Assembly: GCA_017460845.1 (NCBI GenBank)
Contig: JAFUAE010000108.1
Location: 15,567-79,566 of the forward strand
Reading direction: 5' to 3'
Origin: Lachnospiraceae bacterium
Lineage (GTDB): Bacteria > Bacillota > Clostridia > Lachnospirales > Lachnospiraceae
DNA: 64,000 nt
The first letter of the stretch is position 1. Each line of letters starts with the position of its first letter. Of the stretch, positions 1,538 through 59,737 are shown piece after piece. Made by a program: the position numbers and the translations under genes. The notes beneath the pieces are model-generated. The model searched no databases, was not told the origin of the DNA, and saw nothing but the letters and a program-made list of their open reading frames with translations.

Positions 1538-1654
1538 GCAGACATTTGGACGGGCAACAAGTATGAGCAAAAAAGTCGGGCGTAATGAGCCCGACGATTT
1601 GCGAATACTTGTGAGCGCTGTGGGAGTGCGAAGCACGGAGCAGCGCGCAGCCTA
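1538..1654 (+). repeat. Full copy of the dispersed hairpin-rich intergenic repeat family (reference copy A1)
   Basis: Sequence: CAGACATTTGGACGGGCAACAAGTATGAGCAAAAAAGTCGGGCGTAATGAGCCCGACGATTTGCGAATACTTGTGAGCGCTGTGGGAGTGCGAAGCACGGAGCAGCGCGCAGCCTAT. Outer stem is CAAGTAT (1558-1564) with ATACTTG (1605-1611). Inner hairpin is GTCGGGC/GCCCGAC. Mini-hairpin is GTGC-GAA-GCAC (1626-1636). About 85% similar to the copy at 59538-59662. Confidence 0.85.
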
Positions 1655-1681
1655 TTTTAATTATTCATGTTTCCGAAAGCA

Positions 1682-1786
1682 ATGAATATGAGCAATAAAG
1701 CCGCACGATGCGAAGCGAGTGCGGCGAGTTGCGAATATTCAGTGCGGTATGGCGGGAGTGCGAAGCACGGAGCCATGCCTGCTTAT
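1682..1786 (+). repeat. Second copy of the repeat family (A2), in tandem with A1
   Basis: Same architecture as A1 with swapped stems. Outer stem is TGAATAT (1683-1689) with ATATTCA (1735-1741). Inner hairpin is GCCGCAC...GTGCGGC. It then continues GGCGGGAGTGCGAAGCACGGAGC. Confidence 0.8.
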
Positions 1787-1807
1787 TGTCACGATAGTAA
1801 TGCTGCA

Positions 1808-1856
1808 GAAATGCGAAGCACGGAGCAGCGCGCAGCCTATATTATAATATTCATTG
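1808..1856 (+). repeat. Partial copy (3' module only) of the repeat family (A3)
   Basis: GAAATGCGAAGCACGGAGCAGCGCGCAGCCTATATTATAATATTCAT duplicates 1622-1669 (GGGAGTGCGAAGCACGGAGCAGCGCGCAGCCTATTTTAATTATTCAT), including the A/T-rich flank. It abuts the stop codon of the DMT gene. Confidence 0.75.
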
Positions 1857-6882: not shown

Positions 6883-6920
6883 GGTGCTGTTTCCCGTTTG
6901 CGTGGTGATAGTGTTTTTGG

Positions 6921-7135
6921 CATAAGTCCCGGATTGCTCCGTGCTTCGCACTCTGGTTTCCATACATTTCATAACGGCTCGCTGCGCTCGCCTATGAAAT
7001 TGTATCGCAATCCGGCAACGGAGTCTTGCGCTGACGCGCATAAGCTCCGGATTGCTCCGCGCTTCGCGCTCTCGCAATCCGAGCCCCGGAAATTCGGAAA
7101 TCACGCCGCTCCTTTCAGTCGCGTCGCTTTTTTCC
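6921..7135 (-). repeat. Composite copy of the repeat family (B), reverse orientation
   Basis: Two 33-bp direct modules: CATAAGTCCCGGATTGCTCCGTGCTTCGCACTC (6921-6953) and CATAAGCTCCGGATTGCTCCGCGCTTCGCGCTC (7039-7071). GGATTGC...GCAATCC closing stems are present. Mini-hairpins are GTGC-TTC-GCAC and GCGC-TTC-GCGC. Shares AACGGCTCGCT with the copy at 18117-18206. Confidence 0.8.
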
Positions 7136-7267
7136 TCATTTCCGTTGCCCCGTCCAATGAAGAAAAGCCCGCACAAGCAAGCCTGCGCGGGTCTTTTTTC
7201 ATTGTACTTAGCTTATGCGCTAAAAAAAGTCCGCCCCGATGCCTTACACACCAAAACAGACCCTTCG

Positions 7268-7340
7268 TGCGCCTTCAGGGACTCGAACCCTGGACACCCT
7301 GATTAAGAGTCAGGTGCTCTACCAGCTGAGCTAAAGGCGC
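7268..7340 (-). tRNA. tRNA-Lys (anticodon CTT)
   Basis: Reverse complement is GCGCCTTTAGCTCAGCTGGTAGAGCACCTGACTCTTAATCAGGGTGTCCAGGGTTCGAGTCCCTGAAGGCGCA. It folds as a canonical 73-nt cloverleaf with a 7-bp acceptor stem, anticodon loop CT-CTT-AA and T-loop GGTTCGAGTCC. CCA is not encoded. Confidence 0.95.
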
Positions 7341-18116: not shown

Positions 18117-18206
18117 CCAAGCTTCGCGACAGCCACGCTGTCACTACGCATACATGAAAGTAGCGCTCAAGCGTCGCCAACGGCTCGCTTTCGCTGACTT
18201 TCATAG
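18117..18206 (+). repeat. Copy of the repeat family (C)
   Basis: Sequence CCAAGCTTCGCGACAGCCACGCTGTCACTACGCATACATGAAAGTAGCGCTCAAGCGTCGCCAACGGCTCGCTTTCGCTGACTTTCATAG. Stem is ATGAAAGT/ACTTTCAT. Shares AACGGCTCGCT with copy B and ACGCATACATGA with copy H. Confidence 0.65.
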
Positions 18207-21019: not shown

Positions 21020-21107
21020 CTTGCATCCTTTCCTTAATATTCATAAATCGGCTCATGGCCGGGGTTTACTATTCCAAAAAATTCCATATCTTTTAATCTC
21101 GTAAATG

Positions 21108-21172
21108 ATGTAAGACGGATTGTTCCGCACTTCGTGCTCCCACTGATGAGCAAGCTCATCATGGGATCATGG
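21108..21172 (-). repeat. Minimal copy of the repeat family (D), reverse orientation
   Basis: GTAAGACGGATTGTTCCGCACTTCGTGCTCCCACTGATGAGCAAGCTCATCATGG. Mini-hairpin is GCAC-TTC-GTGC (21127-21137) and the palindrome is GATGAGC-AA-GCTCATC. It aligns with module CATAAGTCCCGGATTGCTCCGTGCTTCGCACTC of copy B. Confidence 0.7.
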
Positions 21173-21182
21173 CTTCTGACCC

Positions 21183-22544
21183 TTACATCCATATGATCCA
21201 TAACAATATATATCCCGTCAGGACTGCGATCAGCGTGAAGGGCACGGAATAATTCATGAATTCGGCGGTTTTTACCTCATATCCTTCTTTTCTGAGAATG
21301 CCGATGCCGGTGATATTGGCGGAAGCGCCGATCGGGGTCAGGTTGCCGCCGAGCGTCGCGCCGACGATCAGACCGAAATACAGCAGGTTCGGATCGATAT
21401 CAAGCCCTCCCGCCGCAGAGAGCCGTTTTGCCACGACTGCCACGACAGGCAGCATTGTCGCCGTATAGGGGATGTTATCAATAAAGGCCGAAAGCAGGAC
21501 CGAAGCCCAGACGATGACCGTATAGACCAGAAACACGGAGGCCCTGGACCCGTCTCCGCTTAATGAGGCGAGCAGCGAACCGATATAATCGATCAGTCCC
21601 GCTCTTTCAACGCCGCCGATCACAATAAAAAGACCTGTCAGCAGCGCGATCGTATAGTAATCGATCTCCTGGATCGCATTCAGGACTTTATCAAAGGTCC
21701 TGTCCGTATTGACCTGATTTGCCAGCGCGATCAGGAAAAAGAACAGGCAGATCGCACCGTTTGTGATGCCGGGCTTGTAAAACTGCCCGGGCGCTGCATT
21801 TTCCTTATAAGGAATAAATGAAACCAGGATCAGCGAAATGATGGTAGAAAACAGAAGAATCGCCGGGACACGATCCCTTACCTCCGTCTTGCGTTCGACA
21901 TGGATCTCGGCGTTATTACCGCGGAACATATACAGGATGACGAATGAGGTCACCAGCGCGCCCGCCTCCGTGACCCAGAACATGCCGGGCTTTCCTTTTA
22001 CAAAAAAGAAATCCATAAAATCGAGTCCGGCCTGCTTGGCCAGCAGAAGTGAGGTCGTGTCGCCGACCAGGGTAGCCGCTCCCTGCAGATTGGAGGAGAT
22101 GGAAATGCATATGATCGCCGGAACCGGTGAAATATTGAGGCTCCTGCAGATCGAAAGCGCAACCGGCGCGATCATCAGCACAGTCGCGACATTATCCACA
22201 AAGGCTGAAATAATACCTGCAAACAGCGACAGCGCCAGGACCATGATCTTGACCGAATGCACTCTTGCTACGATCAGGTCGCTCATACGGTCCGGCATGC
22301 CGGAATCGATAAACAGAAAAACCGTGCCCATGGTGCCGCTGATCATCATCAGCACATTCCAGTCGACCGCGCGGATCGCATCGATCCACGAATATTGAAA
22401 TCCCGGAAGTATGCCGATGCTGCCGATGATCACAAAAACCAGAGCAGATACGATCGATACATGAGGCCTGATTTTCTGAAAGGAAAACATCAGGACATAG
22501 GTAATAATAAAAATACAAAGTGCTGTCAGTATCGTTATGTTCAT
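21183..22544 (-). CDS. Anion permease of the ArsB/NhaD/SLC13-like (IT) superfamily; candidate C4-dicarboxylate carrier
   Basis: 453 aa polytopic membrane protein with the two-repeat organisation typical of ion-transporter superfamily permeases. The substrate is inferred only from its position next to malic enzyme and fumarase. Confidence 0.6.
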   Translation of the reverse strand: MNITILTALCIFIITYVLMFSFQKIRPHVSIVSALVFVIIGSIGILPGFQYSWIDAIRAVDWNVLMMISGTMGTVFLFIDSGMPDRMSDLIVARVHSVKIMVLALSLFAGIISAFVDNVATVLMIAPVALSICRSLNISPVPAIICISISSNLQGAATLVGDTTSLLLAKQAGLDFMDFFFVKGKPGMFWVTEAGALVTSFVILYMFRGNNAEIHVERKTEVRDRVPAILLFSTIISLILVSFIPYKENAAPGQFYKPGITNGAICLFFFLIALANQVNTDRTFDKVLNAIQEIDYYTIALLTGLFIVIGGVERAGLIDYIGSLLASLSGDGSRASVFLVYTVIVWASVLLSAFIDNIPYTATMLPVVAVVAKRLSAAGGLDIDPNLLYFGLIVGATLGGNLTPIGASANITGIGILRKEGYEVKTAEFMNYSVPFTLIAVLTGYILLWIIWM

Positions 22545-23359: not shown

Positions 23360-23788
23360 ATGTCAAAAACCAGAAAAAACAATTTTTTAAAGGAACTCAG
23401 ACAAAACAAAGAATATATGCTCTTTTTGCACACCTCGCTGCTGAACTCCAGGTTTACCTGGTTCGTTGCGGCGCTCTGCATTCTCTTTACCGTTGCGGAA
23501 TATCATACGGGCGGCGCTTTCTCGGGATTTATGATCGCGATCCTGATCTATCTCCTTAATTATCTGGCGATCCTTTACACGGCTGCGCCGGCATTTGCCA
23601 TGAAAGGCCGCATCCAGAGAAAGGTCGTTTACGGGGAATATGTCGACTATACTGTCGAAAACAGCCATATCACCCGCAAGGTCCTGAGCGAAAAAACAGA
23701 CTACCAGGTCGGAGACGAAGTCTGGCTGTACCGTTTCAATCCCTGCTTTTTTATCAGCGAGGACAAGACCGGCATGGCTTCTGCCTGA
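23360..23788 (+). CDS. Hypothetical two-TM membrane protein
   Basis: 142 aa with two hydrophobic helices (FTWFVAALCILFTVA and GFMIAILIYLLNYLAILY). RBS GGAGGA lies 8 nt upstream and a terminator follows. No recognisable family motif. Confidence 0.55.
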   Translation: MSKTRKNNFLKELRQNKEYMLFLHTSLLNSRFTWFVAALCILFTVAEYHTGGAFSGFMIAILIYLLNYLAILYTAAPAFAMKGRIQRKVVYGEYVDYTVENSHITRKVLSEKTDYQVGDEVWLYRFNPCFFISEDKTGMASA

Positions 23789-23825
23789 AGCAGGACCAGC
23801 CCCGTGTTTCTCCAAGCTTTAAAAT

Positions 23826-23860
23826 CCCCGTCAGTCTCGGGGGCTGACGGGGATCTCTTT
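23826..23860 (+). terminator. Rho-independent terminator shared by convergent genes
   Basis: 9-bp stem CCCCGTCAG (23826-23834) with CTGACGGGG (23844-23852), followed by a T-rich ATCTCTTTTC tail. It lies between the 23360 gene and the pckA stop. Confidence 0.7.
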
Positions 23861-23876
23861 TCAACAATAATCGCTA

Positions 23877-25490
23877 TTAGAGCTGCGGGCCTGCAGCGGT
23901 GAGTTCCGCACCGCCTTCGATGCCCTCATATTTCTTGAAATTCTTGATGAAGCGGCCGGCCAGATCCTCTGCCTTTTTGTCCCATTCGGAGCCGTCTGCG
24001 TAAGTGTCTCTCGGATCAAGGATCCTGGTATCCACTCCGTTCAGCTCTGTCGGTACCTCAAAGTTGAAGTACGGGATCTTCTTGGTCGGTGCCTGATTGA
24101 TATCTCCGTTCAGGATCGCATCGATGATGCCTCTGGTATCCTTAATGGAAATACGCTTGCCGGTTCCGTTCCAGCCGGTATTGACAAGATATGCCTTCGC
24201 GCCGCTCATCTCCATTCTCTTTACAAGCTCCTGCGCATATTTTGTCGGAGGAAGCTCGAGGAACGCCTGTCCGAAGCACGCCGAGAAGGTCGGGGTCGGC
24301 TCGGTGATGCCGCGCTCTGTGCCTGCAAGCTTAGCGGTAAAGCCTGACAGGAAATAATACTGTGTCTGCTCCGGAGTCAGGATCGATACCGGCGGCAGTA
24401 CGCCGAAAGCATCCGCGGAAAGGAAGATCACGTTCTTTGCTGCCGGACCGGAAGAGGTCGGGCGTACCTTCTGAACGATCTTCTCGATGTGTGTGATCGG
24501 ATAGGACACACGGGTATTTTCGGTCACGCTCTTATCCGCAAAGTCGATTTTGCCGTTTTCATCCAGGGTGACGTTTTCCAGCAGCGCGTTCTTCTTGATC
24601 GCATTGTAGATATCCGGCTCTGAATCCTTGTCGAGGTTGATGACCTTTGCGTAGCAGCCGCCCTCAAAGTTAAAGACGCCGTTATCATCCCAGCCGTGCT
24701 CGTCGTCGCCGATCAGAAGTCTCTTCGGGTCTGTGGAAAGCGTTGTCTTGCCGGTTCCGGAAAGTCCGAAGAAGATCGCCGTATTCTCACCGTTCATATC
24801 GGTATTTGCGGAGCAGTGCATTGCAGCGATGCCCTTCAGCGGAAGGTAATAGTTCATCATGGAGAACATACCCTTCTTCATTTCTCCGCCGTACCAGGTA
24901 TTGATAATGACCTGCTCGCGGCTGGTAATGTTGAATGCGACTGCAGTCTCGGAATTAAGGCCCAGCTCCTTATAGTTCTCAACCTTTGCCTTGGAAGCAT
25001 TGTAAACGACGAAGTCTGGAGTGAAGTCCTTCAGCTCCTCCTCTGACGGAACGATGAACATGTTCTTGATAAAGTGTGCCTGCCATGCGACTTCCATGAT
25101 AAAGCGCACTGCCATGCGCGTATCCTTGTTGGCGCCGCAGAAGGCATCCACGACATAAAGCTTTTTGCCTGAAAGCTCTTTCTTCGCAATGTCCTTCAGG
25201 ACCTTCCAGTTTTCCTGGGACAGCTCGTGGTTGTCGTTCGGATAGCTCTCGCTGTTCCACCAGACGGTATCCTTTGAGTTTTCATCCATGACAATATACT
25301 TATCTTTCGGGGAACGGCCCGTATAAATGCCGGTCATGACATTGACAGCACCGAGCTCGCTGACCTGTCCCTTGTCATATCCGGTCAGCGCCGGATCATT
25401 TTCCGCTTCATAAAGCGCATCGTAGGACGGATTGTAAACGATCTCCGTAGTTCCCGTAATGCCATACTTTGTTAAATCAATATTTGCCAT
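23877..25490 (-). CDS. pckA: Phosphoenolpyruvate carboxykinase (ATP)
   Basis: Trimmed to the ATG at 25490 ([11 protein letters not shown]...), which follows AAGGAG. Contains [13 protein letters not shown] (kinase-1a P-loop), LIGDDEHGW and YLVNTGWNG, diagnostic for ATP-dependent PckA. Confidence 0.93.
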
Positions 25491-27456: not shown

Positions 27457-29055
27457 TCAGCATTCCTGTGCGTCCTGCAGGATCGTCCGGATAATGCCTT
27501 CCGCCGAGATTTCCCCGGATACCAGGTAATTTCCGCATCCGCGCTCCTTCAGTATTTCCGCAGTTTTTTCCCCGATACAGATGCAGCGGATCCTTTCCGG
27601 AATGGAGCCATAAAGGTCATAAAAATACTCTGCACCGCTCCCGCTCGAAAATACCAGATAATCCGTATTCTCCAGCTGTCTCCGGATGTAGTTTTCCCTG
27701 TCCGCTTCCGGACGCAGCCGGTAGACCGGCACATCTTTTACGCTGAATTTTTCTGAAAGGAGACTTGCGGTTTCCGGATTGCCGATTGCCGACCGGAACA
27801 GCCAGACGTCCTGTATGCCGTTCTGATCCGCAAGCAGCGCTTCCGCCAGCTTTTCCCCGGTATAATGCTCCGGGCACAGATCTGCATGAAAGCCCGCTTC
27901 CATAAGCGCCCGGCCGGTGGCTTTTCCGATGACGGCAAAGCGGCAGGCCGCCAGGCTCCTTAAGTCTCTCGAGACTCTCCGGTTTTCCCGGTCTTCCGGT
28001 ATTTTCCTGCTTTGACAGGCTTCCAGATATTGGCGGAAGAAGCATTTTACGCCATTCTCACTGGTAAAAACGATCCAGTGCGGCTGCCCGTCACATATTT
28101 CATCAAACCCGCTTTCCGGCACCGCGACCGGCTCAATAACGGAGCGTTCTGCGGAATATACCTGTGCTCCAAGGCTTTTCAGCATGGCCTTCAGCTTTTT
28201 TTGAATGCTGTCTGTCCCGGTAAGGGCAATTTTCATGCTTCGGAGAGGAGCTTCGCCGTTTTTCAGAGCTCCGGGATCACTATGGCTGATTTTTCCGGCT
28301 TCCGGGCCTGCCCCCTGATACAGATCCATTGCGGCCGTCTCTCCGATCACGATGACCGCAGGGGCCTGAACGCCTGCGGCTTTCGTCCTCTCCGCAATTT
28401 CTCCGAGCGGTGCCCGGACATCTGCAAAATGACCTGTCATTTTTCCCGAAATCACTGCTGCCGGCGTGCCCGGGTCCATACCTGCCGCTATCAGGCGGGC
28501 CGCGATTTCATTGATCTGCCGGAGTCCCATCAGGATCACTATGGTGCCGTTAACCGCCGCAAGCTTCTCTAGATCCTCCGGTATACCTCCATCCGGACCG
28601 CCTGTGTGTGCGGTAACCACATGGAAGCTCCTGCTGACGCCGCGATGGGTGACCGGAATGCCGGCCTCCGCCGGAACTGCGATGCAGGAGGATATGCCGG
28701 GCACGATTTCAGCTTCAATACCGGCTTTCAAAAGTGCAAGCATTTCTTCCCCGCCGCGTCCGAAGACAAGCGGATCACCGCCCTTGAGACGCACAACGCA
28801 AAGACCGCGGGATGCAAGTTCGATCAGCGTACTGCAGATTTCCTCCTGCGGCGCACTGTGACTGCCGCGCCGTTTGCCCATATAGATTTTTATCGCTTCC
28901 GGCGAAACCAGATCCATCAGGCTGTTATCGATCAGATCGTCATATACGACTGCATCGCAGGCCTTAAGCAGCTCTGCACCCCTGACCGTGATCAGACCGG
29001 CCTCTCCGCATCCGGCGCCGACCAGATATACTTTTCCTTCCCTATGCTTTGTCAT
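27457..29055 (-). CDS. Bifunctional uroporphyrinogen-III C-methyltransferase / uroporphyrinogen-III synthase (CobA-HemD fusion)
   Basis: 532 aa. The N-terminal half has VYLVGAGCGEAGLITVRGAELLKACDAVVYDDL and VVRLKGGDPLVFGRGGEE (SUMT signatures). The C-terminal ~260 aa is a HemD-like fold. Confidence 0.88.
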   Translation of the reverse strand: MTKHREGKVYLVGAGCGEAGLITVRGAELLKACDAVVYDDLIDNSLMDLVSPEAIKIYMGKRRGSHSAPQEEICSTLIELASRGLCVVRLKGGDPLVFGRGGEEMLALLKAGIEAEIVPGISSCIAVPAEAGIPVTHRGVSRSFHVVTAHTGGPDGGIPEDLEKLAAVNGTIVILMGLRQINEIAARLIAAGMDPGTPAAVISGKMTGHFADVRAPLGEIAERTKAAGVQAPAVIVIGETAAMDLYQGAGPEAGKISHSDPGALKNGEAPLRSMKIALTGTDSIQKKLKAMLKSLGAQVYSAERSVIEPVAVPESGFDEICDGQPHWIVFTSENGVKCFFRQYLEACQSRKIPEDRENRRVSRDLRSLAACRFAVIGKATGRALMEAGFHADLCPEHYTGEKLAEALLADQNGIQDVWLFRSAIGNPETASLLSEKFSVKDVPVYRLRPEADRENYIRRQLENTDYLVFSSGSGAEYFYDLYGSIPERIRCICIGEKTAEILKERGCGNYLVSGEISAEGIIRTILQDAQEC

Positions 29056-29331: not shown

Positions 29332-30306
29332 TCAGGCAGCATTTGAAAGCTCGCCGCCGGAATCGGCCTCTATCGAATTACTGTTTACGGGGAATGTAAA
29401 GTAGGTATCCGGATAGGGTTCATTTTCAAGGGTAAAATGCCACCATTCTTCAACCAGCGGCCGGAAGCCGTGTGCTGTCATGGCTTCCCGCAGGATCATG
29501 CGGTTGTCATACTGTTCCTTCGTAATGTCCATATAATCCGGATGGCTGAGCTCTCCGAAATAATCGAAGGTTCCGCCCATGTCCACTTCTTTTTCCTTTT
29601 TCATATCAAACAGGGTCAGATCCACGGTACTGCCGCGGCTGTGGCCGGAGTGCTCCGCGATATATCCCTGCGGAAAGAGGACATCCTTCTCCAGTTCCGG
29701 ATAGAAATATTCCTTCATGCGGGTGTCATCCGGATCCAGCGCCCAGTTCATGAAATGCGTGACTGCCTTCTGCGGACGGTACGCATCAAAGATCTTCAGG
29801 CGGTATCCTTTTTCCATCAGGTCATCGCTGACTTCCTTCAGTGCGGCTGCTGCTTCCTTTGTCAAAAAGGCCAGCGGCTCCTCATAGCCGTCGATCCGCT
29901 CCCCGACAAAATTATAGGTGGAATAATAGCGGATCTCCAGGATCACATCCGGAACCGCCTCGCTGAGCAGTACAAACCCGGAGGAATCGTCAGACAGCTT
30001 TACGCCGTCAGGTCCGATCGTTACACCTGTCTGTGTTTCCTGCCCGGCCTCAGATCCCTCTGCCGCTGCATCCGTTTCAGCCGCCAGTGAAGCTGCAGCT
30101 GTCTCTGTCTGCGCTTCCGCTTCTGTCTGCGCCGCTGTTGTCTGGGCCGCTGTCGTCTGCACCGGCGTCGTCTGTGCTGCTGTTGTCTGTGCTGCTGTTG
30201 TCTGCGCTGCTGTCGTCTGTGCTGCCGCTCCGGAGGCGCCGCATGCAGCAAGCGTCATCATCAGTAATGCAGCCGCGATAATAAAGTATTTATGATGTCT
30301 TTTCAT
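29332..30306 (-). CDS. D-alanyl-D-alanine dipeptidase (VanX-type, peptidase M15D) lipoprotein
   Basis: Trimmed to the ATG at 30306 (MKRHHKYFIIAALLMMTLAACGASG, which contains a lipobox). Contains IFDAYRPQKAV, HSGHSRGSTVDLTL and EEWWHF, which match VanX/DdpX metal and catalytic motifs. The linker is (AAQTT)n. Confidence 0.85.
   Translation of the reverse strand: MKRHHKYFIIAAALLMMTLAACGASGAAAQTTAAQTTAAQTTAAQTTPVQTTAAQTTAAQTEAEAQTETAAASLAAETDAAAEGSEAGQETQTGVTIGPDGVKLSDDSSGFVLLSEAVPDVILEIRYYSTYNFVGERIDGYEEPLAFLTKEAAAALKEVSDDLMEKGYRLKIFDAYRPQKAVTHFMNWALDPDDTRMKEYFYPELEKDVLFPQGYIAEHSGHSRGSTVDLTLFDMKKEKEVDMGGTFDYFGELSHPDYMDITKEQYDNRMILREAMTAHGFRPLVEEWWHFTLENEPYPDTYFTFPVNSNSIEADSGGELSNAA
30131..30220 (-). 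repeat. Six tandem 15-bp coding repeats (AAQTT linker)
   Basis: Units GC(C/T)GCTGT(T/C)GTCTG(G/C/T) start at 30131, 30146, 30161, 30176, 30191 and 30206. They encode the AAQTT-repeat lipoprotein linker. Confidence 0.9.
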
Positions 30307-30394
30307 TTTATGGCTTCCATCGTAAAGAGGGCCGCCGCACCTGCGGCAGCCCTCCATGTTTTTAATCGTATATTGTGGTGTTCCTTCTTCAGGA

Positions 30395-33566: not shown

Positions 33567-33678
33567 ATATGAGCTGCGCGCTGTTCCGCACTACGTGCTA
33601 CCACAGCGCTCACAAGTGTCCGATTTACCGTGCGTACTTCGTACGCCCGTAAATCTTCCACTTTCTGAGAGCTCATAT
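33567..33678 (-). repeat. Copy of the repeat family (E), reverse orientation, closed by 9-bp terminal inverted repeats
   Basis: It aligns to the reverse complement of A1 through GCTGCGCGCTGTTCCGCACTACGTGCTACCACAGCGCTCACAAGTGTCCG. Mini-hairpin is GCAC-TAC-GTGC (33588-33598). Inner hairpin is GATTTAC-CG-TGCGTAC-TTC-GTACGC-CC-GTAAATC. Ends are ATATGAGCT and AGCTCATAT. Confidence 0.8.
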
Positions 33679-33736
33679 AGTAAACTCTTTAAAAATTTTC
33701 CTTGCAATGCAGTCTGCCCGGTCATAAGATACTTCC

Positions 33737-38116: not shown

Positions 38117-38560
38117 TTAATAATTACTTTCATCCAACTGCAGCGGCTTTCCCCCGTTTTCCAGAATTGTCAGCATTTCCCGTGGAGTTACCACGAATGG
38201 TTTCAAAGGGAAATGCTTCGTATTGCCGGTGACAAGATATGCATCGTCACCCTTTCTTGCCTCCATCGTGACAGCATAGAAAACCACATCTTTAGGATCC
38301 GGAAGATTCTCCTCGACCTTTGCGGGATCAAGAAAGACTCCTCTTTTTCGGATGCCTTCTGTCAGTGCCAGGATGTCCTGTTCCTGAAACGGGAACTTTT
38401 TCCGTCGCAATACTTCTTCATACTCATCCATGATCTCGTCGCTTAAAACAGGAACAATGCTTCCTACAAGGGCCTGTTCCAGGACGGCCCCGGGAACAGA
38501 ATCCCACCGGAGCAGCGCCGAAACCAAAACATTGGTGTCAATCACTGCATAAAGCTTCAT
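38117..38560 (-). CDS. PIN-domain toxin of a type II toxin-antitoxin pair
   Basis: 147 aa. The N-terminus MKLYAVIDTNVLVSALL is the PIN first acidic motif. Later acidic residues are present (DEIMDEYEEV and TGNTKHF). It overlaps the upstream antitoxin gene by 4 nt. Confidence 0.8.
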   Translation of the reverse strand: MKLYAVIDTNVLVSALLRWDSVPGAVLEQALVGSIVPVLSDEIMDEYEEVLRRKKFPFQEQDILALTEGIRKRGVFLDPAKVEENLPDPKDVVFYAVTMEARKGDDAYLVTGNTKHFPLKPFVVTPREMLTILENGGKPLQLDESNY

Positions 38561-38856
38561 CTGTTATTCCCGCTCCTTGCCGCTGCAATCTCTGCGTTGA
38601 TTTCCTCTAATGTCATATCTGAAACCCCGGCCTTTTCAGCATCCCTGCTCATCCGTTTCATGGCAGCAATCGCCGCGGTTGCTTTGTAATCCTCGTCCGG
38701 AAGAAGCATACTGAAAGGAATTCCGCGGACCTGCACCGAACGTGTCAGGAACATGCGGATCGCGGTAGGCAGATCCAAACCGAGCTGTGCGTAAATATCA
38801 GCGGCCTCCTGCCGCAGCGTATCATCTATCCGAAGCTGAAGTAATCCATTTGCCAT
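38557..38856 (-). CDS. RelB/DinJ-family antitoxin
   Basis: 99 aa from the ATG at 38856 (RBS GGAGGC). MANGLLQLRIDDTLRQEAADIYAQLGLDLPTAIRMFLTRSV is the ribbon-helix-helix DinJ/RelB signature. The longer track ORF (to 39015) has no RBS support. Confidence 0.8.
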   Translation of the reverse strand: MANGLLQLRIDDTLRQEAADIYAQLGLDLPTAIRMFLTRSVQVRGIPFSMLLPDEDYKATAAIAAMKRMSRDAEKAGVSDMTLEEINAEIAAARSGNNR

Positions 38857-38945
38857 AGTAATGCCTCCAATAACTGCATTTGTTTGTAATGCAAGTGTAA
38901 TATAATGTTGCAATAAAATCAAGTGCATCATAAATTCATGCAATT

Positions 38946-38977
38946 GAAATAAAAAGGCCGTTCCAAAGAACGGTCCT
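38946..38977 (-). terminator. Rho-independent terminator upstream of the toxin-antitoxin promoter region
   Basis: Hairpin AGGCCGTTC (38955-38963) with GAACGGTCCT (38968-38977, one bulge). On the minus strand it is followed by TTTTTATTTC. Confidence 0.5.
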
Positions 38978-39169
38978 TTTCTACCAGCTATCTTACCTAT
39001 TGTTATCGTGCACACCCGTTTTCCACTTTTTGTGCGATTTTTACTTCCATTCCGTAAATGTCGGAAAATAGATATTTTCCGCCGCTTCCCGCGGCTGCTC
39101 TCTAAAACCGGCTTCCAAAATGCCTGTCAGATAAGGATTTCCGAAAAGATAAAATTCTAGTTTTATCGG

Positions 39170-39203
39170 ACACAAAAGGAGCCCCGGCTTTTGCCAAGGC
39201 TCC
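39170..39203 (-). terminator. Terminator-like hairpin downstream of the hydrogenase operon and its repeat element
   Basis: GGAGCC (39178-39183) pairs with GGCTCC (39198-39203). On the minus strand it is followed by TTTTGTG. Confidence 0.45.
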
Positions 39204-39220
39204 TCGAATGGAAATTGAAT

Positions 39221-39400
39221 GATTAAGCCCTGTCGCAAAGCGTACACAGACTGAAGGCTTGCCTTCATGGATGGGTGCGCTTTCGCGACGCAAACATGCA
39301 TGAGCAAAAAAGCTCGGCGACTTCAGGAGCAGAGCGATTTGCGAATGCATGCAGGATTGCGGAAGCTTCGAAGAAGCGAAGCAATCCGTTGGGCTTAATC
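39221..39400 (+). repeat. 180-bp copy of the repeat family (G) with 10-bp terminal inverted repeats and three internal hairpins
   Basis: Terminal inverted repeats are GATTAAGCCC (39221-39230) and GGGCTTAATC (39391-39400). Hairpin 1 is TCGCAAAGCG...GCGCTTTCGCGA. Hairpin 2 is CATGCAT-GAGCAAAAAA...GATTTGCGA-ATGCATG (39295-39351), equivalent to stem I of A1. Hairpin 3 is GGATTGC-GGAAGCTTCGAAGAAGCGAAGC-AATCC. Confidence 0.85.
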
Positions 39401-43235: not shown

Positions 43236-43320
43236 TCACTATAGAATGCAGCGAGTTGTAACGAGCGCTCATTCCATGTGTGCGTTAGCTCATGTATGCG
43301 TCGCGCCAAAGAGGTTGGCA
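43236..43320 (-). repeat. Partial copy of the repeat family (H), reverse orientation, inside the hydrogenase leader
   Basis: The reverse complement of 43262-43320 reads CCAACCTCTTTGGCGCGACGCATACATGAGCTAACGCACACATGGAATGAGCGCTC. It matches GCGCTTTCGCGACGCAAACATGCATGAGCAAAA of copy G and ACGCATACATGA of copy C. GCGAGTTGTAACGAGCGCTCAT resembles GCGAGTTGCGAATACTTGT. Confidence 0.55.
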
Positions 43321-47802: not shown

Positions 47803-48624
47803 TCAGTTCTGAATCTTATCTTTCTCAGCCGGCGGGCCATCCGGAATCGCATCGATTTCCGGTATGATCTCCCGCAGATTTACTCTGCATTCCCCTCCCC
47901 AGACCAGGACGGGTATATCATCAGTAAAGGTATAAATGACCGGGAGATCCTCATGCTCAAGGTCATAAACAACGACCTGTTTTCTGTCCGTATCCACAAG
48001 CCAGTATTCCCGCACGCCTGCATCGGTATATTTCTTCAGCTTCAGGCTCATGTCCTTTTTGCGGGTAGAGGGCGACAGAATCTCAACAACCAGATCCGGA
48101 GCTCCGTAAATACATCGTTTGATCAGCTTTGACGGATCGCAGAGGATCACAACATCCGGTTCCACCATTGTCTTATTATCTCTGTCCAGCTGGACGCTGA
48201 TCGGCGAAATGTACGGAAAACAGCGGGTCTTCTTTTTCTTCTGAAAAGAGAGCAGCTGGAAATAAATTTCTCCGGCGGCTACCTGATGCTGGACTGCCGG
48301 TGTCGCCATATCATAAAAAACCCCGTCGATCAGTTCTGCCCTGCAGTCATCCGGAAGTGCATAATAATCATCTACCGTATATTCCTTCTGCCGGTTATAA
48401 ACAGGCCGCCCGGAATCACACAGCAAAAACTCCGGAACTCCATGAAAATGATAACCCGTGCCCAGTATCCGTTCCAGCTTCTCGATCGTTTCCCTGCGCG
48501 GGCGTTCCGTGATGCCGCCCAGAACCTTCTGCAGCGTCCCGAGCGGCAGACCGGTCAGCGCTGACAGTTCCTTATAAGAATATCCGAGTTCTGTCTTTCG
48601 CTTTCTCATTTCATCTATCGTCAT
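47803..48624 (-). CDS. XRE-type HTH domain fused to a Uma2 (DUF820) PD-(D/E)xK endonuclease-fold domain (paralogue 1)
   Basis: 273 aa from the ATG at 48624 (RBS AAAGGAG). The HTH is YSYKELSALTGLPLGTLQKVLGG. The nuclease fold has ELIDGVFYDMATP, EPDVVILCD, GAPDLVVEILSPST and YTDAGVREYWLVD. The 405-aa track ORF is an upstream read-through of tandem repeats. Confidence 0.8.
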   Translation of the reverse strand: MTIDEMRKRKTELGYSYKELSALTGLPLGTLQKVLGGITERPRRETIEKLERILGTGYHFHGVPEFLLCDSGRPVYNRQKEYTVDDYYALPDDCRAELIDGVFYDMATPAVQHQVAAGEIYFQLLSFQKKKKTRCFPYISPISVQLDRDNKTMVEPDVVILCDPSKLIKRCIYGAPDLVVEILSPSTRKKDMSLKLKKYTDAGVREYWLVDTDRKQVVVYDLEHEDLPVIYTFTDDIPVLVWGGECRVNLREIIPEIDAIPDGPPAEKDKIQN

Positions 48625-48673
48625 AAGCGGGCTCCTTTCGGCATCTTTCTCTGTTTGTCCTCTGCTTATCCTT

Positions 48674-48702
48674 ATTATAACCTTTTCATCTCCATTTTTC
48701 AA
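48674..48702 (-). promoter_or_regulatory. Near-consensus SigA promoter of HTH-Uma2 paralogue 1
   Basis: On the minus strand: TTGAAA (plus 48697-48702), then a 17-nt spacer, then TATAAT (plus 48674-48679), 50 nt upstream of the ATG. AATATATCCAA (plus 48707-48717) lies just upstream and recurs in the paralogue 2 promoter. Confidence 0.6.
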
Positions 48703-48736
48703 GTAGTTGGATATATTGCGGTTGATTTGTGGATCA

Positions 48737-48836
48737 ATTTCGGCAGATCTATCTCGGCGGATATATCTCGGCGGATAATATCTCGGCGGATATATCTCGG
48801 CGGATAATATCTCGGCGGATATATCTCGGCGGATCA
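48737..48836. repeat. Iteron-like array: 6 perfect plus 1 degenerate copies of ATCTCGGCGGATA with alternating 14/15-bp spacing
   Basis: Unit starts are 48751, 48765, 48780, 48794, 48809 and 48823, with a degenerate unit at 48737. The array is bracketed by the direct repeat GGATCAATTT (48731-48740 and 48831-48840). It lies 35-140 nt upstream of the -35 box of the HTH-Uma2 gene. Confidence 0.9.
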
Positions 48837-48930
48837 ATTTCTGCTGTTTTGCAATCAGATTTTTTGCATGCCACAGTTCTTCAAAGCGCTGATATCCGGT
48901 GTGAACGACCACAGCCTGATTTTCTCTCAA

Positions 48931-49230
48931 TTTTCTCTGTCCTTTTGAATCCTTGATGTCCTGATCGAACTGCCACATCCAGGCTCCTTCATATTTTTCT
49001 CCGTCCTTTTTAGCTCTCAAGGTTCAAAATAGACACCCACATTTTAACATTTCATCATTTTTCTCCGTCCTTTTTGCCGCTCAAGGATTTAAAAGGACAA
49101 CCACATCAATCGATTTAATAACTATTCTCTGTCCGAACCACGTTTTCCGGCAAAAAAAGAACAACCACATCTGACGATTCAACTATTTTTCTCTGTCCTC
49201 TCCATCATTCTGATAATAAAACCAACAGAT
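48931..49230. repeat. Degenerate tandem array of about 62-67-bp units (about 5 copies)
   Basis: Units start at about 48931, 48994, 49058, 49125 and 49186. Each opens with TTTTCTC(C/T)GTCC, and most contain (A/G)ACA(A/C)CCACAT about 40 nt later. Confidence 0.75.
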
Positions 49231-49277
49231 AATAATACTAATACTTAATAATACTAATACTTAATAATACTGATACC
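49231..49277. repeat. 16-bp tandem repeat AATAATACTAATACTT, about 3 copies
   Basis: 49231-49246 and 49247-49262 are identical. 49263-49277 is AATAATACTGATACC. Confidence 0.9.
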
Positions 49278-49291
49278 AATAAGATATACAG

Positions 49292-49359
49292 GAAAACAGG
49301 CCGTCCGGTATAGATATGCTGCATATTCCAGCATCCCATAACCGTTACGGCCTGTTTTC
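49292..49359 (-). terminator. Long hairpin downstream of the 49442 esterase gene (terminator-like)
   Basis: Perfect 13-bp stem GAAAACAGGCCGT (49292-49304) with ACGGCCTGTTTTC (49347-49359), enclosing a 42-nt loop with an internal palindrome ATATGC-T-GCATAT. The flanks are T-rich. Confidence 0.4.
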
Positions 49360-49441
49360 TTTTCCATCTATCACAGGAGGAACTATGCCGGCAATGTCAT
49401 CTGCCGGATCGTCCTTTTACATTGGCATTTCGCCGTGTGCA

Positions 49442-50614
49442 TTACTGCATTTTTCTCTGTGCAAACATCCAGTCTCTGAAGCCCTTGTCGGCATACATCG
49501 GTACCCAGGAGAAATGCGCGGAGGTTCCGAATACGGTACCCGGAGCATAAAGTGTTGTCCTGAAGGAAATGCCTGCTGCCGTAAGCGCCTGGATCGTCGG
49601 ATAGTAATACTCATCCGGCTTGACTGTCGGGTCGTCTGCTGCCTGGAAGATCCACATCGGAATACCTCTGAGGGCACCGACCTTGGACGGATCTGCACCT
49701 GCTGCGTCCGGAGCGATTGCTGCAAATACTTCCGGATGCTCGATTGCAAGGGTATAGGTACCGAAGCCGCCTGCGGAAAGACCGGTCATGTAGACTCTGC
49801 TTCTGTCTACGGAATACTCGTTCATGACCTTCTGCAGAAGGTTATAAGCGCCGTAGAGGTAAGGCATGCCGTCAAAAGAATTCGGTGCTGTACCGCCTCT
49901 GTAGCCCATCAGTGTGGTCCAGTTGTCTGTGCTGGTCTTATCAGCAGTCATGGAGCACTGCGGAGCCAGTACGATGCACTGGTTATGTCCGGCCTCGGAA
50001 TCCTTTGCCCAGACTGTTGCCATCTGATATCTCTTCAGGACCATATCTACAGTCTGTGTTCTCTGGCCCGAGCCATGGAGTGCAAATACGATCGGATACT
50101 GCTTTGACGGATCGTAGTTGCTCGGTACGTAGAGCTCATACGGAATATTTACATTGTTCTCTGCATCAAAATAGGTTCCCGGTGTAAACAGGTTGTAAGC
50201 CCAGGTATCGCAGTCTCTGACGACGTTGATGGTGTAGGTCTTGCTGAGTCCGTCCTTGGAAACGACTACCGGGATCGGGGTTACAAGCTCAATATCATAG
50301 TTTGCATAGCTGCCGTCAATGGAAACGATCTTGCCCTGTCCGGAGATTGCTTCATCTCCATTGATCGTAAGAGATGCACCTGCCGGTGCAACTGCTGTTA
50401 CCTTTACGCCGTAGCAGTCAGACTGTACATTATAGGTATAGTCCGTCACGTTTGAGTAGAACGGAATGTTCCTGCCATCCTGCACTGCTGTGGTGATCGA
50501 AAGGCTGATGAGGGAAATATCCCCGTTCCCCTGATCTGCCATGGCCATCTGCGAAGCGCCGATCGTCATGACCGCTGCCATCAGGAGCGCTGCAATTCTT
50601 TTCATCTTTTTCAT
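49442..50614 (-). CDS. Secreted esterase: N-terminal cadherin-like beta-sandwich plus alpha/beta-hydrolase (CE1 / PHB-depolymerase-like esterase) domain
   Basis: 390 aa with a signal peptide (AALLMAAVMTIGASQMAMA). The beta-sandwich segment is ISLISLSITTAV...YTYNVQSDCYGVKVTAVAPAGASLTING. Catalytic motifs are FALHGSG and the nucleophile elbow MTGLSAGGFG. Confidence 0.75.
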   Translation of the reverse strand: MKKMKRIAALLMAAVMTIGASQMAMADQGNGDISLISLSITTAVQDGRNIPFYSNVTDYTYNVQSDCYGVKVTAVAPAGASLTINGDEAISGQGKIVSIDGSYANYDIELVTPIPVVVSKDGLSKTYTINVVRDCDTWAYNLFTPGTYFDAENNVNIPYELYVPSNYDPSKQYPIVFALHGSGQRTQTVDMVLKRYQMATVWAKDSEAGHNQCIVLAPQCSMTADKTSTDNWTTLMGYRGGTAPNSFDGMPYLYGAYNLLQKVMNEYSVDRSRVYMTGLSAGGFGTYTLAIEHPEVFAAIAPDAAGADPSKVGALRGIPMWIFQAADDPTVKPDEYYYPTIQALTAAGISFRTTLYAPGTVFGTSAHFSWVPMYADKGFRDWMFAQRKMQ

Positions 50615-54404: not shown

Positions 54405-55487
54405 TTATTTTGCAAACTGATCCTTCACAAACCGCAGCGCGCAGTTTGCGCCGAACTCACCCTGATTGCCGTGTGTCGTGGAGGAGGTTCCGAACATATA
54501 TGCCTCAACCCCGTACTTTGTCAGGGCTTCAAACAGCTCATAGCTCTGTGCCGGAGCGACTCTGTGGTCTTTTCCGCCAAACAGGATCATAAACGGAACA
54601 TCGTTTTTATCCGTAAAATTCAGCGGGCAGGCAAGGTACGCTCTGTGAAGCGCAGCCTGCGTCTCCTCATCGGCGTCGGGATTAATATACGGGCTTCCCG
54701 GATTTCCCATCTGTGCCCTGAGTGCATACAGGCCCTGGTTTTCTCCCGTATATCCGATCAGCAGAGATCTGGAGGATTCCGGATCATCCGCCTGCTTGTA
54801 CATTTCCGCAGGATCGATGATGTGCGGTCTCAGATACTGTGCCGGTGCAAGGTCCAGAATGTCTGTCATTCCATAGTAGTCCACAACTGCCAGCGGCTTG
54901 GAGGAGTATTCCAGGTTTCCTCCGACCTCGCCCTCCAGCTCCTCCACGCCATCCGTGGTGCCGAGGATATTGCACAGCTGCGCGCCTGCGCTCTGACCCC
55001 AGACAATGATCCTGTCCGGATCGATGTTGTACTCATCCGCATGGGCTCTCAGGAATCGGATCTGGCCCTTGAGGTCCCAGACCATTGCCGGATACAGGGC
55101 TTCATTTGCAAGCCTGTAATCTGCCGTCACGACTGTGATGCCCATATCAAGGGCTCTCATGCAGGCGAAAAACGGATCATTGGTACCTGTATCCTTCTCC
55201 ATCAGATTCTCGCAGGTATAGTCTCCGGAAGTCCATGCTCCGCCGTGTACATAAAGGATCACGGGAGTCGGCCCGCTGACATTTTCCGGGTTGTATATAT
55301 TCATGCGAAGCTCCCTGGAAGGGCCGGCCTCGGAAAGCTCTGTATCTACTGTATCCACTACGACATCTGCAAATGTCGGCTTCTTTTCAAAATGTGTCCC
55401 CTCGAGCGGCTTATATTCCGCGAAAGAGCAGAGATGCGCGCCGAGCACGAGTGATACGCCAAGCAATACGGATAAAACTTTTTTCAT
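54405..55487 (-). CDS. Secreted alpha/beta-hydrolase esterase (HGG-type oxyanion hole, GQSAG nucleophile elbow), paralogue A
   Basis: 360 aa with a signal peptide. Contains VILYVHGGAWTSGD, IIVWGQSAGAQL and C-terminal TTHGNQG (catalytic His context). It lies 18 nt downstream of paralogue B. Confidence 0.8.
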   Translation of the reverse strand: MKKVLSVLLGVSLVLGAHLCSFAEYKPLEGTHFEKKPTFADVVVDTVDTELSEAGPSRELRMNIYNPENVSGPTPVILYVHGGAWTSGDYTCENLMEKDTGTNDPFFACMRALDMGITVVTADYRLANEALYPAMVWDLKGQIRFLRAHADEYNIDPDRIIVWGQSAGAQLCNILGTTDGVEELEGEVGGNLEYSSKPLAVVDYYGMTDILDLAPAQYLRPHIIDPAEMYKQADDPESSRSLLIGYTGENQGLYALRAQMGNPGSPYINPDADEETQAALHRAYLACPLNFTDKNDVPFMILFGGKDHRVAPAQSYELFEALTKYGVEAYMFGTSSTTHGNQGEFGANCALRFVKDQFAK

Positions 55488-59334: not shown

Positions 59335-59500
59335 CCATATTTGGTTATTCATTCCATTAATGGTTATTAATCGTTATATCAAAGCGGCTGATCACAGCCC
59401 GGTCACTGACCGGCATGAATGCAGCCGACATTGAAGTGCAGCTGCCTTCAGCGAATTCTGCTCTTGACCCTCTGGCTCTAAAAGTATAGTATAAGCTCTT

Positions 59501-59524
59501 GGAAAATGGACGAAAAAAGAAAGC
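59501..59524 (+). repeat. Left copy of the perfect 24-bp direct repeat flanking repeat copy F
   Basis: GGAAAATGGACGAAAAAAGAAAGC is identical to 59670-59693. Its last 13 nt form a perfect inverted repeat with the adjacent GCTTTCTTTTTTC (59527-59539). Confidence 0.95.
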
Positions 59525-59537
59525 AAGCTTTCTTTTT

Positions 59538-59662
59538 TCAGGACATTTGACAAGGCAACAAGTATGAGCAATAAAGGCACGCGAGTGAAACGAGCGGGGC
59601 GAGTTGCGAATACTTGTTAGCGATGCGGGAGCTGCTTTAGCAGCAGAGCAGCGCGCAGCTTA
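59538..59662 (+). repeat. Full copy of the repeat family (F)
   Basis: Sequence CAGGACATTTGACAAGGCAACAAGTATGAGCAATAAAGGCACGCGAGTGAAACGAGCGGGGCGAGTTGCGAATACTTGTTAGCGATGCGGGAGCTGCTTTAGCAGCAGAGCAGCGCGCAGCTTAT. It is collinear with A1. The mini-hairpin is replaced by GCTGC-TTTA-GCAGC (59631-59644). Confidence 0.85.
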
Positions 59663-59669
59663 TAAAAAA

Positions 59670-59693
59670 GGAAAATGGACGAAAAAAGAAAGC
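59670..59693 (+). repeat. Right copy of the perfect 24-bp direct repeat flanking repeat copy F
   Basis: GGAAAATGGACGAAAAAAGAAAGC is identical to 59501-59524. It lies 45 nt upstream of the pepD start. Confidence 0.95.
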
Positions 59694-59737
59694 CTGCCGG
59701 TGTCACTCGGCTCATAAACAAACAGGAGGTTCCTGAC

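Follow-up and report, generated by a model that had tools for sequence, protein, structure and literature searches.

Hairpin repeats in a Lachnospiraceae contig are copies of Clostridiales-1 RNA (RF01699), a modular and probably mobile structured repeat

Clostridiales-1 RNA copies in the window

The window analyzed here, a 64-kb stretch of a contig from a Lachnospiraceae bacterium, carries a family of hairpin-rich repeats in its intergenic gaps, beside genes that include those for an EamA protein, a MatE protein, a CitMHS transporter, an [FeFe]-hydrogenase, and the dipeptidase PepD. When the whole window was scanned against Rfam with cmscan at curated thresholds, RF01699, the Clostridiales-1 RNA, was matched five times above its gathering score of 48 bits, and the same scan returned one tRNA besides. 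Two further RF01699 matches, of 40.5 and 24.8 bits, fell below the gathering score in a scan at an E-value threshold. The hairpin repeats are copies of Rfam RF01699, and the family is therefore one that is already named and catalogued.

We built a covariance model from the copy at 1485 to 1656 and rebuilt it from 66 hits. The rebuilt model (R2), run on the window without filters, found nine copies or fragments at six intergenic loci (Table 1; stems P1 to P4 are described in the next section), and a sequence-only profile (nhmmer) recovered the same nine. Beyond the Rfam matches, R2 added the partial copy at 6921 to 7030 on the minus strand and the 3' fragment at 1802 to 1840 on the plus strand, and nhmmer agreed on both. 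The P3 pattern ATGAGCAANAAAG-N14-40-TTGCGAAT occurred four times in the window, compared with 0.00 expected from 100 shuffles, so that the earlier claim of a related structured repeat at most of the places named for it stands far beyond chance.

That claim came from a first reading of the letters of the window (the original prediction), which had listed ten copies of an element that it did not recognize as a named one. Most of the listed sites stood, but the copies claimed at 18117 to 18206 and 43236 to 43320 had neither a model match (E > 10) nor an nhmmer match. These two stretches have about 21 nt (CGCGACGCA[A/T]ACATG) in common with one copy, at its P2/P3 junction, and the score is barely above that of shuffles. 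The repeat at the first site was confirmed, with its first copy starting at 1485 and not at 1538, and every arm sequence that had been quoted agrees with the window sequence. The description of the family as modular, with partial copies, is matched by fragments, copies lacking P2, and tandem remnants, and all of the proposed settings (both orientations and 3', intercistronic, and 5'-leader positions) were seen. The statement that the element has no name does not hold, and membership in a known Rfam family is an outcome that the original prediction had itself named as speaking against it.

The Clostridiales-1 motif was first described with four stems by Weinberg et al. (2010, Genome Biol 11:R31, PMC2864571), who recorded 206 representatives and offered no function. 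Their table scores the motif as a likely RNA, not cis-regulatory and not a switch, with a range of Clostridiales and human gut; their evidence codes give it no "rep" mark, a mark that was given to Chloroflexi-1 as a suspected repetitive element (PMC2864571). The window copies agree with that description in their four-stem architecture, in their conserved motifs, and in taxon range (Clostridia and gut or rumen metagenomes). Rfam types RF01699 as "Gene; sRNA" (small RNA). A search of full-text literature by family name and accession yielded, besides the 2010 discovery paper, incidental Rfam listings alone, and the literature found makes no mention of dense multicopy occurrence, partial modules, strain-level rearrangement, within-genome homogeneity, target duplications, or stop-codon placement.

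Relatives were gathered in one scan of a species-representative genome collection with the P3 pattern, which gave at least 109 loci and an incomplete list of taxa; because the loci were picked by this pattern, conservation of ATGAGCAA/TTGCGAAT in the sample is forced. Among the matches listed, most came from Lachnospiraceae and other Eubacteriales, with Moryella indoligenes DSM 19659 (L077), Oribacterium sp. C9 (L112), Clostridium sp. Marseille-P3244 (L111), Blautia, Marvinbryantia, and Mediterraneibacter among the carriers, and about 25 to 30 came from unrelated phyla, which is the number that chance predicts. The rebuilt model found 92 copies in 100 of the scanned loci and more in the remaining loci. 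The great majority of the homologues confirmed by the model belonged to Lachnospiraceae and other Eubacteriales from the gut and rumen, which fits the range of RF01699, and the closest named protein relatives of the window organism, at 73 to 83% identity, were metagenome-assembled genomes labeled "Eubacteriales bacterium." A plasmid collection gave no match, and a phage collection gave three partial P4 matches on unannotated fecal "Bacteriophage sp." contigs. In Candidatus Mediterraneibacter merdavium, a strong cobalamin riboswitch (L031 5109-5317, minus strand; 107 bits) and a weak relative of the repeat that scores below threshold (R2, 22.9 bits) are some 100 nt apart.

Table 1. Clostridiales-1 (RF01699) copies, fragments, and remnants in the window. 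ORF, open reading frame; UTR, untranslated region; MFE, minimum free energy.
Feature	Position	Strand	Match	Setting and remarks
Copy A, full-length; P1 AATAGGC/GCCTATT with P2, P3, and P4	1485-1656	+	RF01699, 103.8 bits	Antisense to both flanking genes; MFE of -89.1 kcal/mol, with a fold that gives back the four stems
Copy B, without the P2 hairpin	1660-1787	+	RF01699, 52.5 bits (1659-1787); R2, 81.5 bits	
Solo 3' fragment, P4 tip and P1 3' strand	1802-1840	+	R2, 15.3 bits; nhmmer, E = 0.002	End 10 nt from EamA stop codon; 1812-1840 is an exact 29-nt duplicate of copy A 1627-1655 (repeat family D8, 88% identity)
Partial tandem copy, P4 module split by an unrelated hairpin, with P1 3' strand GGGACTTATG	6921-7030	-	R2, 19.1 bits, E = 0.004; nhmmer, E = 1e-5	Overlaps the start of the called MatE ORF
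Full-length copy	7039-7217	-	RF01699, 92.9 bits (7040-7216); R2, 126 bits	Starts 4 nt past the T-run behind tRNA-Lys (7267-7340); sense, upstream of the MatE gene
Minimal copy, P1, short hairpin, and P4 tip	21107-21189	-	RF01699, 24.8 bits (21106-21190), sub-threshold; R2, 24.8 bits, E = 1e-4	P1 5' strand GGATGTAAG includes the TAA stop of the CitMHS transporter gene (21183-22544); malic-enzyme gene 87 nt downstream
Copy without P2	33568-33677	-	RF01699, 40.5 bits (33568-33726), sub-threshold; R2, 59.9 bits	Between the PGI and AzlC/D genes, antisense to both
Full-length copy	39224-39397	+	RF01699, 101 bits	Antisense, in the 3' UTR of the [FeFe]-hydrogenase gene, between its stop codon (39430) and a terminator-like hairpin with T-run on the minus strand at ~39150-39205 (by eye)
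Full-length copy	59490-59664	+	RF01699, 78 bits (59491-59663); R2, 123 bits	Sense, in the pepD (M20 dipeptidase) 5' leader
Internally deleted tandem remnant	59670-59716	+	Read from sequence	59670-59693 is an exact 24-nt repeat of the preceding copy's own P2 5' arm (59501-59524), followed by a degenerate 3' end (...CGGCTCAT)

Covariation of the four-stem fold

The unit is about 170 nt long. A closing helix, P1, pairs both ends (7 to 8 bp in the window alignments) and encloses the three hairpins P2, P3, and P4. P2 is a long hairpin with a G(CUUG)C tip, P3 holds a tandem G.A internal loop inside the motifs AUGAGCAA...UUGCGAAU, and P4 has the base pairing GCGCUG/CAGCGC, an internal loop (GGGA/GGA), and a GNA tip. 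MFE folds of individual copies match this four-stem fold, at -70 to -89 kcal/mol.

In the six best window copies, 92.7% of the pair cells held standard pairs, compared with 31 to 43% when the 3' partners were slid by one to three columns, and both sides had changed at 44 of the 60 pairs. Adding copies of other genomes to those of the window, for 66 in all, gave nearly the same paired fraction (92.0%, compared with 31 to 40% when slid), a compensatory change at 60 of 60 pairs and in all helices, and a covariation score of 0.62 compared with 0.04 to 0.08 for the slid alignments. For pairs of copies at orthologous positions in different species, double changes that kept pairing outnumbered those that broke it by 7 to 1, 2 to 0, and 11 to 2. 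These findings support the conclusion that the folded single-stranded structure, and not the sequence of the stems, is under selection or other maintenance.

The original prediction had anticipated both the covariation of the stems and the maintenance of structure rather than sequence, and the window copies and the 66-copy alignment back both points. Its architecture was partial: P3 (its "Stem I") and the tip of P4 (its "mini-hairpin") had been seen, but P1 and the long P2 had been missed, and GCGCTG/CAGCGC, which it listed as unpaired, is the base pairing of P4 in the family consensus alignment.

Several signals, all of them modest, favor the modeled strand, the double changes at orthologous positions among them. 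Of 73 copies, 48 had GCTTGC at the tip of P2 and 12 had GCAAGC, G-U cells outnumbered A-C cells (114 versus 59), and the strand modeled by Rfam folded better than its complement by 13 to 19 kcal/mol in the five above-threshold copies. Watson-Crick pairs made up 89% of the paired cells, and G-U (or, in DNA, G-T) pairs made up 3%.

Some subfamilies in other genomes have extra conserved sequence past the ends of the model (L095 2445-2820, L042 3023-3230, L098 124-340, L075, and L044), with TTTAC[A/T] upstream and A(T/C)(T/C)ATGGTGGTG downstream, the latter followed by a short hairpin and CATG. This downstream extension forms a fifth module or hairpin outside the Rfam model.

Turnover and placement of the copies

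Copies on different contigs of one genome had a median identity of 76%, with many at 85 to 96%, whereas copies from different genomes had a median identity of 52% and a 99th percentile of 75%; some genomes held two distinct subfamilies. The gap behind the EamA gene at the first cluster differed in its arrangement of copies. The EamA protein was 100% identical on 19 metagenome contigs, and among strains with identical EamA proteins this gap took three forms: copy A alone (L003); copy A with the P2-less copy B and the 29-nt duplicate of the 3' end of A (the window and L001, L002, and L004 to L006); and a full-length B, with its P2, lying upstream and fused to a 5'-truncated A (L007). The fragment at 1802 to 1840 was absent from both L003 and L007. 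At the pepD locus, a strain with a 97%-identical PepD had solely a P4-like remnant of about 45 nt ending in GGCTTAT, and at the hydrogenase locus, where the window has its full copy, a relative at 83% amino acid identity had P4 by itself, with position and orientation unchanged. Orthologous loci beside three genes (EamA, pepD, and hydrogenase) are thus polymorphic for modules or whole copies.

Tandem reiteration of modules was also common. Across genomes, many copies were followed after 4 to 40 nt by partial reiterations of their own modules (P2, P3 plus P4, or P4), with examples of P2 alone, of P3 plus P4 three times at a 120-nt period (L067), and of P4 three times (L077, the M. indoligenes locus). 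We considered whether P2 or P1 derives from the sequence of the host target, an idea prompted by the 24-nt repeat at 59670, and rejected it since P2 is common to copies on different contigs of one genome; a truncated tandem unit explains this repeat better. Together, these comparisons show that the repeats are a proliferating, modular family, in which near-identical strains differ by the gain, loss, and tandem reiteration of modules.

Some members also bear hallmarks of DNA transposition. L043 and L069 (RF01699, 52.5 and 53.7 bits), which are 91% identical and lie on separate contigs of a single Lachnospiraceae genome, each have a perfect terminal inverted repeat (TIR) of 14 to 15 bp, which is P1, and each is flanked just outside P1 by a different perfect 8-bp direct repeat, ATAATTTT and AAACCTGT; in these copies, which appear to be young, TIRs go together with putative 8-bp target duplications. 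Near-perfect 8-bp repeats outside P1 were found at 5 of 72 full-length copies, compared with 0.48 expected (300 shuffles, maximum of 4); one of the five (L048) is the end of an adjacent tandem copy and not a target duplication. L049, a relative that scores below the threshold, shows a duplication of 9 bp, and a 112.6-bit copy (L110) matches at 7 of 8 positions. Across copies, P1 pairs the termini over 7 to 15 bp with a sequence that varies by subfamily, and it is not extended past the ends of the model. The element has the features of a MITE (miniature inverted-repeat transposable element) in that it is small (about 170 bp), noncoding, and multicopy, with P1 as terminal inverted repeats. An all-against-all BLASTP of 532 flanking ORFs from about 75 loci found solely ordinary ABC transporters to recur, and no transposase was enriched.

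Placement relative to genes was not random. Of 62 loci with ORFs on both sides, 30 had the element co-oriented with both neighbors, 11 had it behind the co-oriented gene of a convergent pair, 9 were divergent with the element sense to the downstream gene, and 12 (about 20%) were antisense to both. Relative to the upstream gene alone, the element was co-oriented at 41 loci and opposed at 21. A co-oriented ORF of at least 100 codons stopped within 12 nt of the element 5' end at 30 of 77 loci, compared with 7 of 77 for the mirrored 3' end (Fisher P = 2e-5), with the stop codon mostly at -6 to +4 relative to the 5' end; the minimal copy at 21107 to 21189, with the CitMHS stop within its P1 strand, is the example in the window. 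Likewise, a co-oriented terminator-like hairpin with a T-run lay within 120 nt upstream at 18 of 76 loci, compared with 7 to 8 of 76 for the other combinations of side and strand, and about 12 of these sites, in a class that includes the window copy behind tRNA-Lys, end 4 to 13 nt before the element. These counts show that the 5' end of the element is tied, in a strand-specific manner, to the end of the upstream gene, whether a stop codon or a terminator T-run. We rejected the possibility that the element is itself an intrinsic terminator: a T-run was present in the P2 3' half in 7 of 76 cases and in none after the P1 3' strand, and downstream terminator-like sites (7 of 76) were at background.

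The copies have consequences for gene calls, as had been predicted for spurious ORFs and false N-terminal extensions. The start of pepD in the ORF list, 59675, runs through a repeat fragment, and the start is probably at 59738, behind AGGAGG, because a 97%-identical homologue is 481 amino acids long, the length obtained from 59738. For MatE, the called start (about 6972) falls within the partial copy; an ATG farther along, near 6891, is the more plausible one.

Beside the hydrogenase operon with its repeat copy, between it and a metallophosphatase gene, the segment at 38117 to 39015 encodes a RelB-antitoxin and PIN-domain pair (a toxin-antitoxin module). This segment is rearranged, because PGI directly follows hydrogenase in the relative at 83% identity. 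Elsewhere in the window, tandem repeats at 48740 to 48842, 48987 to 49134, and 49230 to 49276 occupy the gap between ORFs at 47803 to 49020 (minus strand) and 49316 to 50107 (plus strand) and the 3' end of the first ORF. Their units are a 14/29-nt TCGGCGGATATATC repeated about 6.6 times (92 to 96% match), a 64-nt unit present two to three times, and a 16-nt TAATAATACTAATACT present 2.9 times, and the layout of 48740 to 49276 looks like iterons or an array of binding sites. A further tandem repeat at 30124 to 30225 (15 nt, or 45 nt; 6.8 copies; 82% match) lies in the minus-strand ORF at 29332 to 30357 and presumably encodes a repeated pentapeptide. Adjacent minus-strand ORFs at 54405 to 55487 and 55506 to 56789 form a pair of tandem paralogues, with 79% identity across 300 nt and as much as 89% within shorter segments (families D1, D10, and D19). 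Sub-threshold Rfam matches to a cobalamin riboswitch at 23754 to 23975 (minus strand; 21.3 bits, with a cutoff of 31.5) and to a SAM-III riboswitch at 27490 to 27612 (minus strand; 24 bits, with a cutoff of 45) are probably due to chance.

The nature of the repeat

Considering its turnover, termini, and placement together, we think that Clostridiales-1 is probably a structured, nonautonomous, modular mobile repeat of the MITE, bcr1, or BOX kind and not a set of independent sRNA genes, and, on the choice between RNA and single-stranded DNA that the original prediction had left undecided, the evidence leans toward a mobile DNA repeat whose transcribed strand matters. By behavior, the closest analogue appears to be the bcr1 repeats of the Bacillus cereus group, with BOX elements next. 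As described, bcr1 (with bcr2 and bcr3; Okstad 2004; Klevan 2007; Kristoffersen 2011; reviewed in PMC3184786) is an intergenic, MITE-like repeat of Firmicutes of about 155 bp. It is similar in size to the element studied here and likewise cruciform-like, with independent stem-loops kept by compensatory changes, and it is transcribed in UTRs and intercistronic regions and has short flanking direct repeats; for Clostridiales-1, co-transcription is what its placement suggests. The two differ in that bcr1 has 5-bp direct repeats at every copy, compared with 8-bp repeats at a few young copies of Clostridiales-1, and in that bcr1 is limited to one species group, whereas Clostridiales-1 spans many genera with conserved loops. 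A sequence relation to bcr1 is not expected, and the likeness is one of described behavior.

BOX elements of Streptococcus pneumoniae (Martin 1992; Croucher 2011, PMC3049150) are mosaics of boxA-boxB(n)-boxC whose module number varies by strain through slippage or unequal crossover. Like them, the Clostridiales-1 repeat is modular, and it would share extensive RNA structure, co-transcription with neighbors, low current mobility, and no transposase of its own. The modules and sequence of BOX are different, however; BOX forms a linear A-B-C array rather than a closed four-way architecture, is over-represented between convergent genes, and has no reported stop-codon contact. Repetitive extragenic palindromic (REP) sequences offer a third comparison. 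Together with bacterial interspersed mosaic elements (BIMEs) and the REPIN-RAYT systems, they are dispersed intergenic palindromes of 3' UTRs and spacers that occur in mosaic clusters and stabilize the upstream mRNA; translation is reduced when a REP lies no more than about 15 nt from a stop codon. Clostridiales-1 resembles them in its dispersal through 3' UTRs and intercistronic spacers and in its mosaic clusters. In contrast, a REP is a single hairpin of about 35 nt that comes with a RAYT (Y1 transposase) gene; the unit described here, at about 170 nt, is five times larger and has three internal hairpins, and no RAYT-type gene was present among the 532 flanking ORFs of about 75 loci.

In a mobile repeat of this kind, new copies would arise through a transposase that acts in trans on P1, and modules would be reshuffled by local slippage or recombination among them, as for boxB of the pneumococcal BOX element. 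Copies would persist mainly just behind genes and be co-transcribed with their neighbors into 3'-UTR or intercistronic RNA, which would add a very stable four-way junction, with a predicted energy of -70 to -89 kcal/mol, to 3' UTRs and spacers. Such a junction may block 3'-to-5' decay and stabilize the upstream message. At loci with P1 across a stop codon, the junction may sense ribosomes that are terminating or get in their way, as REP sequences reportedly do in E. coli (Liang, Rudd, and Deutscher 2015). The purine-rich conserved loops are presumably bound by a conserved protein, either a transposase or a host factor.

Several observations weigh against a mobile repeat that acts through its transcribed strand. 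P1 covaries between subfamilies and the internal loops are conserved across genera, which is the reverse of a classical MITE, in which the TIRs are the site of the transposase; this combination suggests that the loops are read by some conserved factor. Target duplications were not recognizable at any window copy or at most other copies. Comparisons among strains and relatives recovered no empty site with exact boundaries: the element-free relative L124 had broken synteny, pepD relatives at 71 to 73% identity were not syntenic, and a metagenome scan yielded just three loci. In exact-protein look-ups, three ORFs had no match, for which differing start codons or strain differences are possible reasons. 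A parent insertion sequence with matching ends was not present in the loci examined. As for the RNA, G-U pairs are rare and just twofold over A-C, so that the signal for an RNA strand is modest, and in the small set of copies in antisense context the excess was gone (12 versus 10), with no significant difference between sense- and antisense-context copies. At the 12 of 62 loci antisense to both neighbors, which are joined by 3 of the 6 window loci, transcription of the modeled strand would take a promoter of its own, and no such promoter was found. Copies just behind a terminator T-run would be transcribed by read-through alone.

These same observations bear on the other explanations. The element could act purely at the DNA level, with hairpins in single-stranded DNA or cruciforms that serve a mobilizing enzyme or recombination, gyrase, or replication, as has been proposed for REP/BIME, so that the RNA fold is a by-product. 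The dominance of Watson-Crick pairs, the occurrence of both orientations, the TIRs with 8-bp duplications, the homogeneity within genomes, and the behavior of copies as rearrangement hot spots would all suit such an element, as would the GCGAAGC at the P4 tip, which reportedly makes a DNA mini-hairpin of unusual stability (Hirao et al.). A DNA-level role does not account for the nonrandom orientation to the upstream gene, for stop-codon contact confined to the 5' end of the modeled strand (30 versus 7 loci), or for the asymmetric P2 tip and the twofold excess of G-T over A-C, and we judge it unlikely. The Rfam typing implies instead a family of trans-acting sRNA genes, each copy independently transcribed, with conserved loops that bind a protein or target. 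Consistent with this typing, four stems covary and unpaired motifs are conserved over many Lachnospiraceae genomes, the CUUG-type tetraloop of P2 is strand specific, copies at orthologous positions are kept between species with compensatory changes, some copies antisense or divergent to their neighbors would need their own promoter, and the discoverers judged the motif a likely RNA that is not cis-regulatory (Weinberg et al., PMC2864571). Yet no conserved promoter or terminator flanks the copies, with few T-runs in P2 and none past P1, and the 5' end coincides with an upstream stop codon at 39% of loci. Partial and tandem modules are common, arrangements differ among near-identical strains, copies are homogenized within genomes, target duplications occur at a few of them, and their density is up to 9 copies in 64 kb, all of which leaves independent sRNA genes with rather little probability.

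A cis-regulatory leader, riboswitch-like or protein binding, that controls the downstream gene would fit two window loci, the copies before MatE (7039 to 7217) and before pepD (59490 to 59664), and the 9 of 62 divergent loci elsewhere in which the element is sense to the downstream gene. The downstream genes are functionally unrelated, however, most copies lie behind genes and not in front of them, no expression platform was seen, and the motif was scored as not cis-regulatory by its discoverers (PMC2864571), so that we regard this explanation as highly improbable. Other candidates were set aside. Integron attC sites make a similar contact with stop codons, but the genes on either side of the repeat are ordinary housekeeping ones of mixed orientation, with no recurrent integrase in their vicinity. 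TnpB or IscB omega-RNA, IS110 bridge RNA, a group II intron domain, a k-turn, and a riboswitch were rejected on context or motifs, with the Rfam scans and the survey of flanking genes as the tests run, because of the housekeeping flanks, the lack of a recurrent protein, the small invariant loops, and misfitting helix registers.

A more specific form of the mobile-repeat reading can be offered tentatively and with more doubt than confidence. Clostridiales-1 may have been misfiled as an sRNA gene and may be a mobile repeat across Lachnospiraceae whose purine-rich loops bind a conserved factor. Its 5' end would then come to lie at a stop codon or T-run either through insertion that targets gene ends, which is undescribed for MITEs, or through an RNA function coupled to translation termination. 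Under the termination-coupled version, the terminating ribosome would have to melt P1 of the -70 to -89 kcal/mol junction.

Since the accession RF01699 has existed since 2010, the copies in the window are a rediscovery and should be annotated as RF01699, not as new. The behavior added here argues for re-typing Clostridiales-1 as a structured mobile repeat, which is an incremental result and not a new kind of system. Masking of repeat copies would improve gene calls in carrier genomes, as for pepD and MatE. The motif is very common in gut and rumen Clostridia; if it is treated as a mobile repeat in mRNAs and not as an sRNA gene, different experiments become sensible, and the strand-specific contact with stop codons provides a concrete, testable hypothesis.

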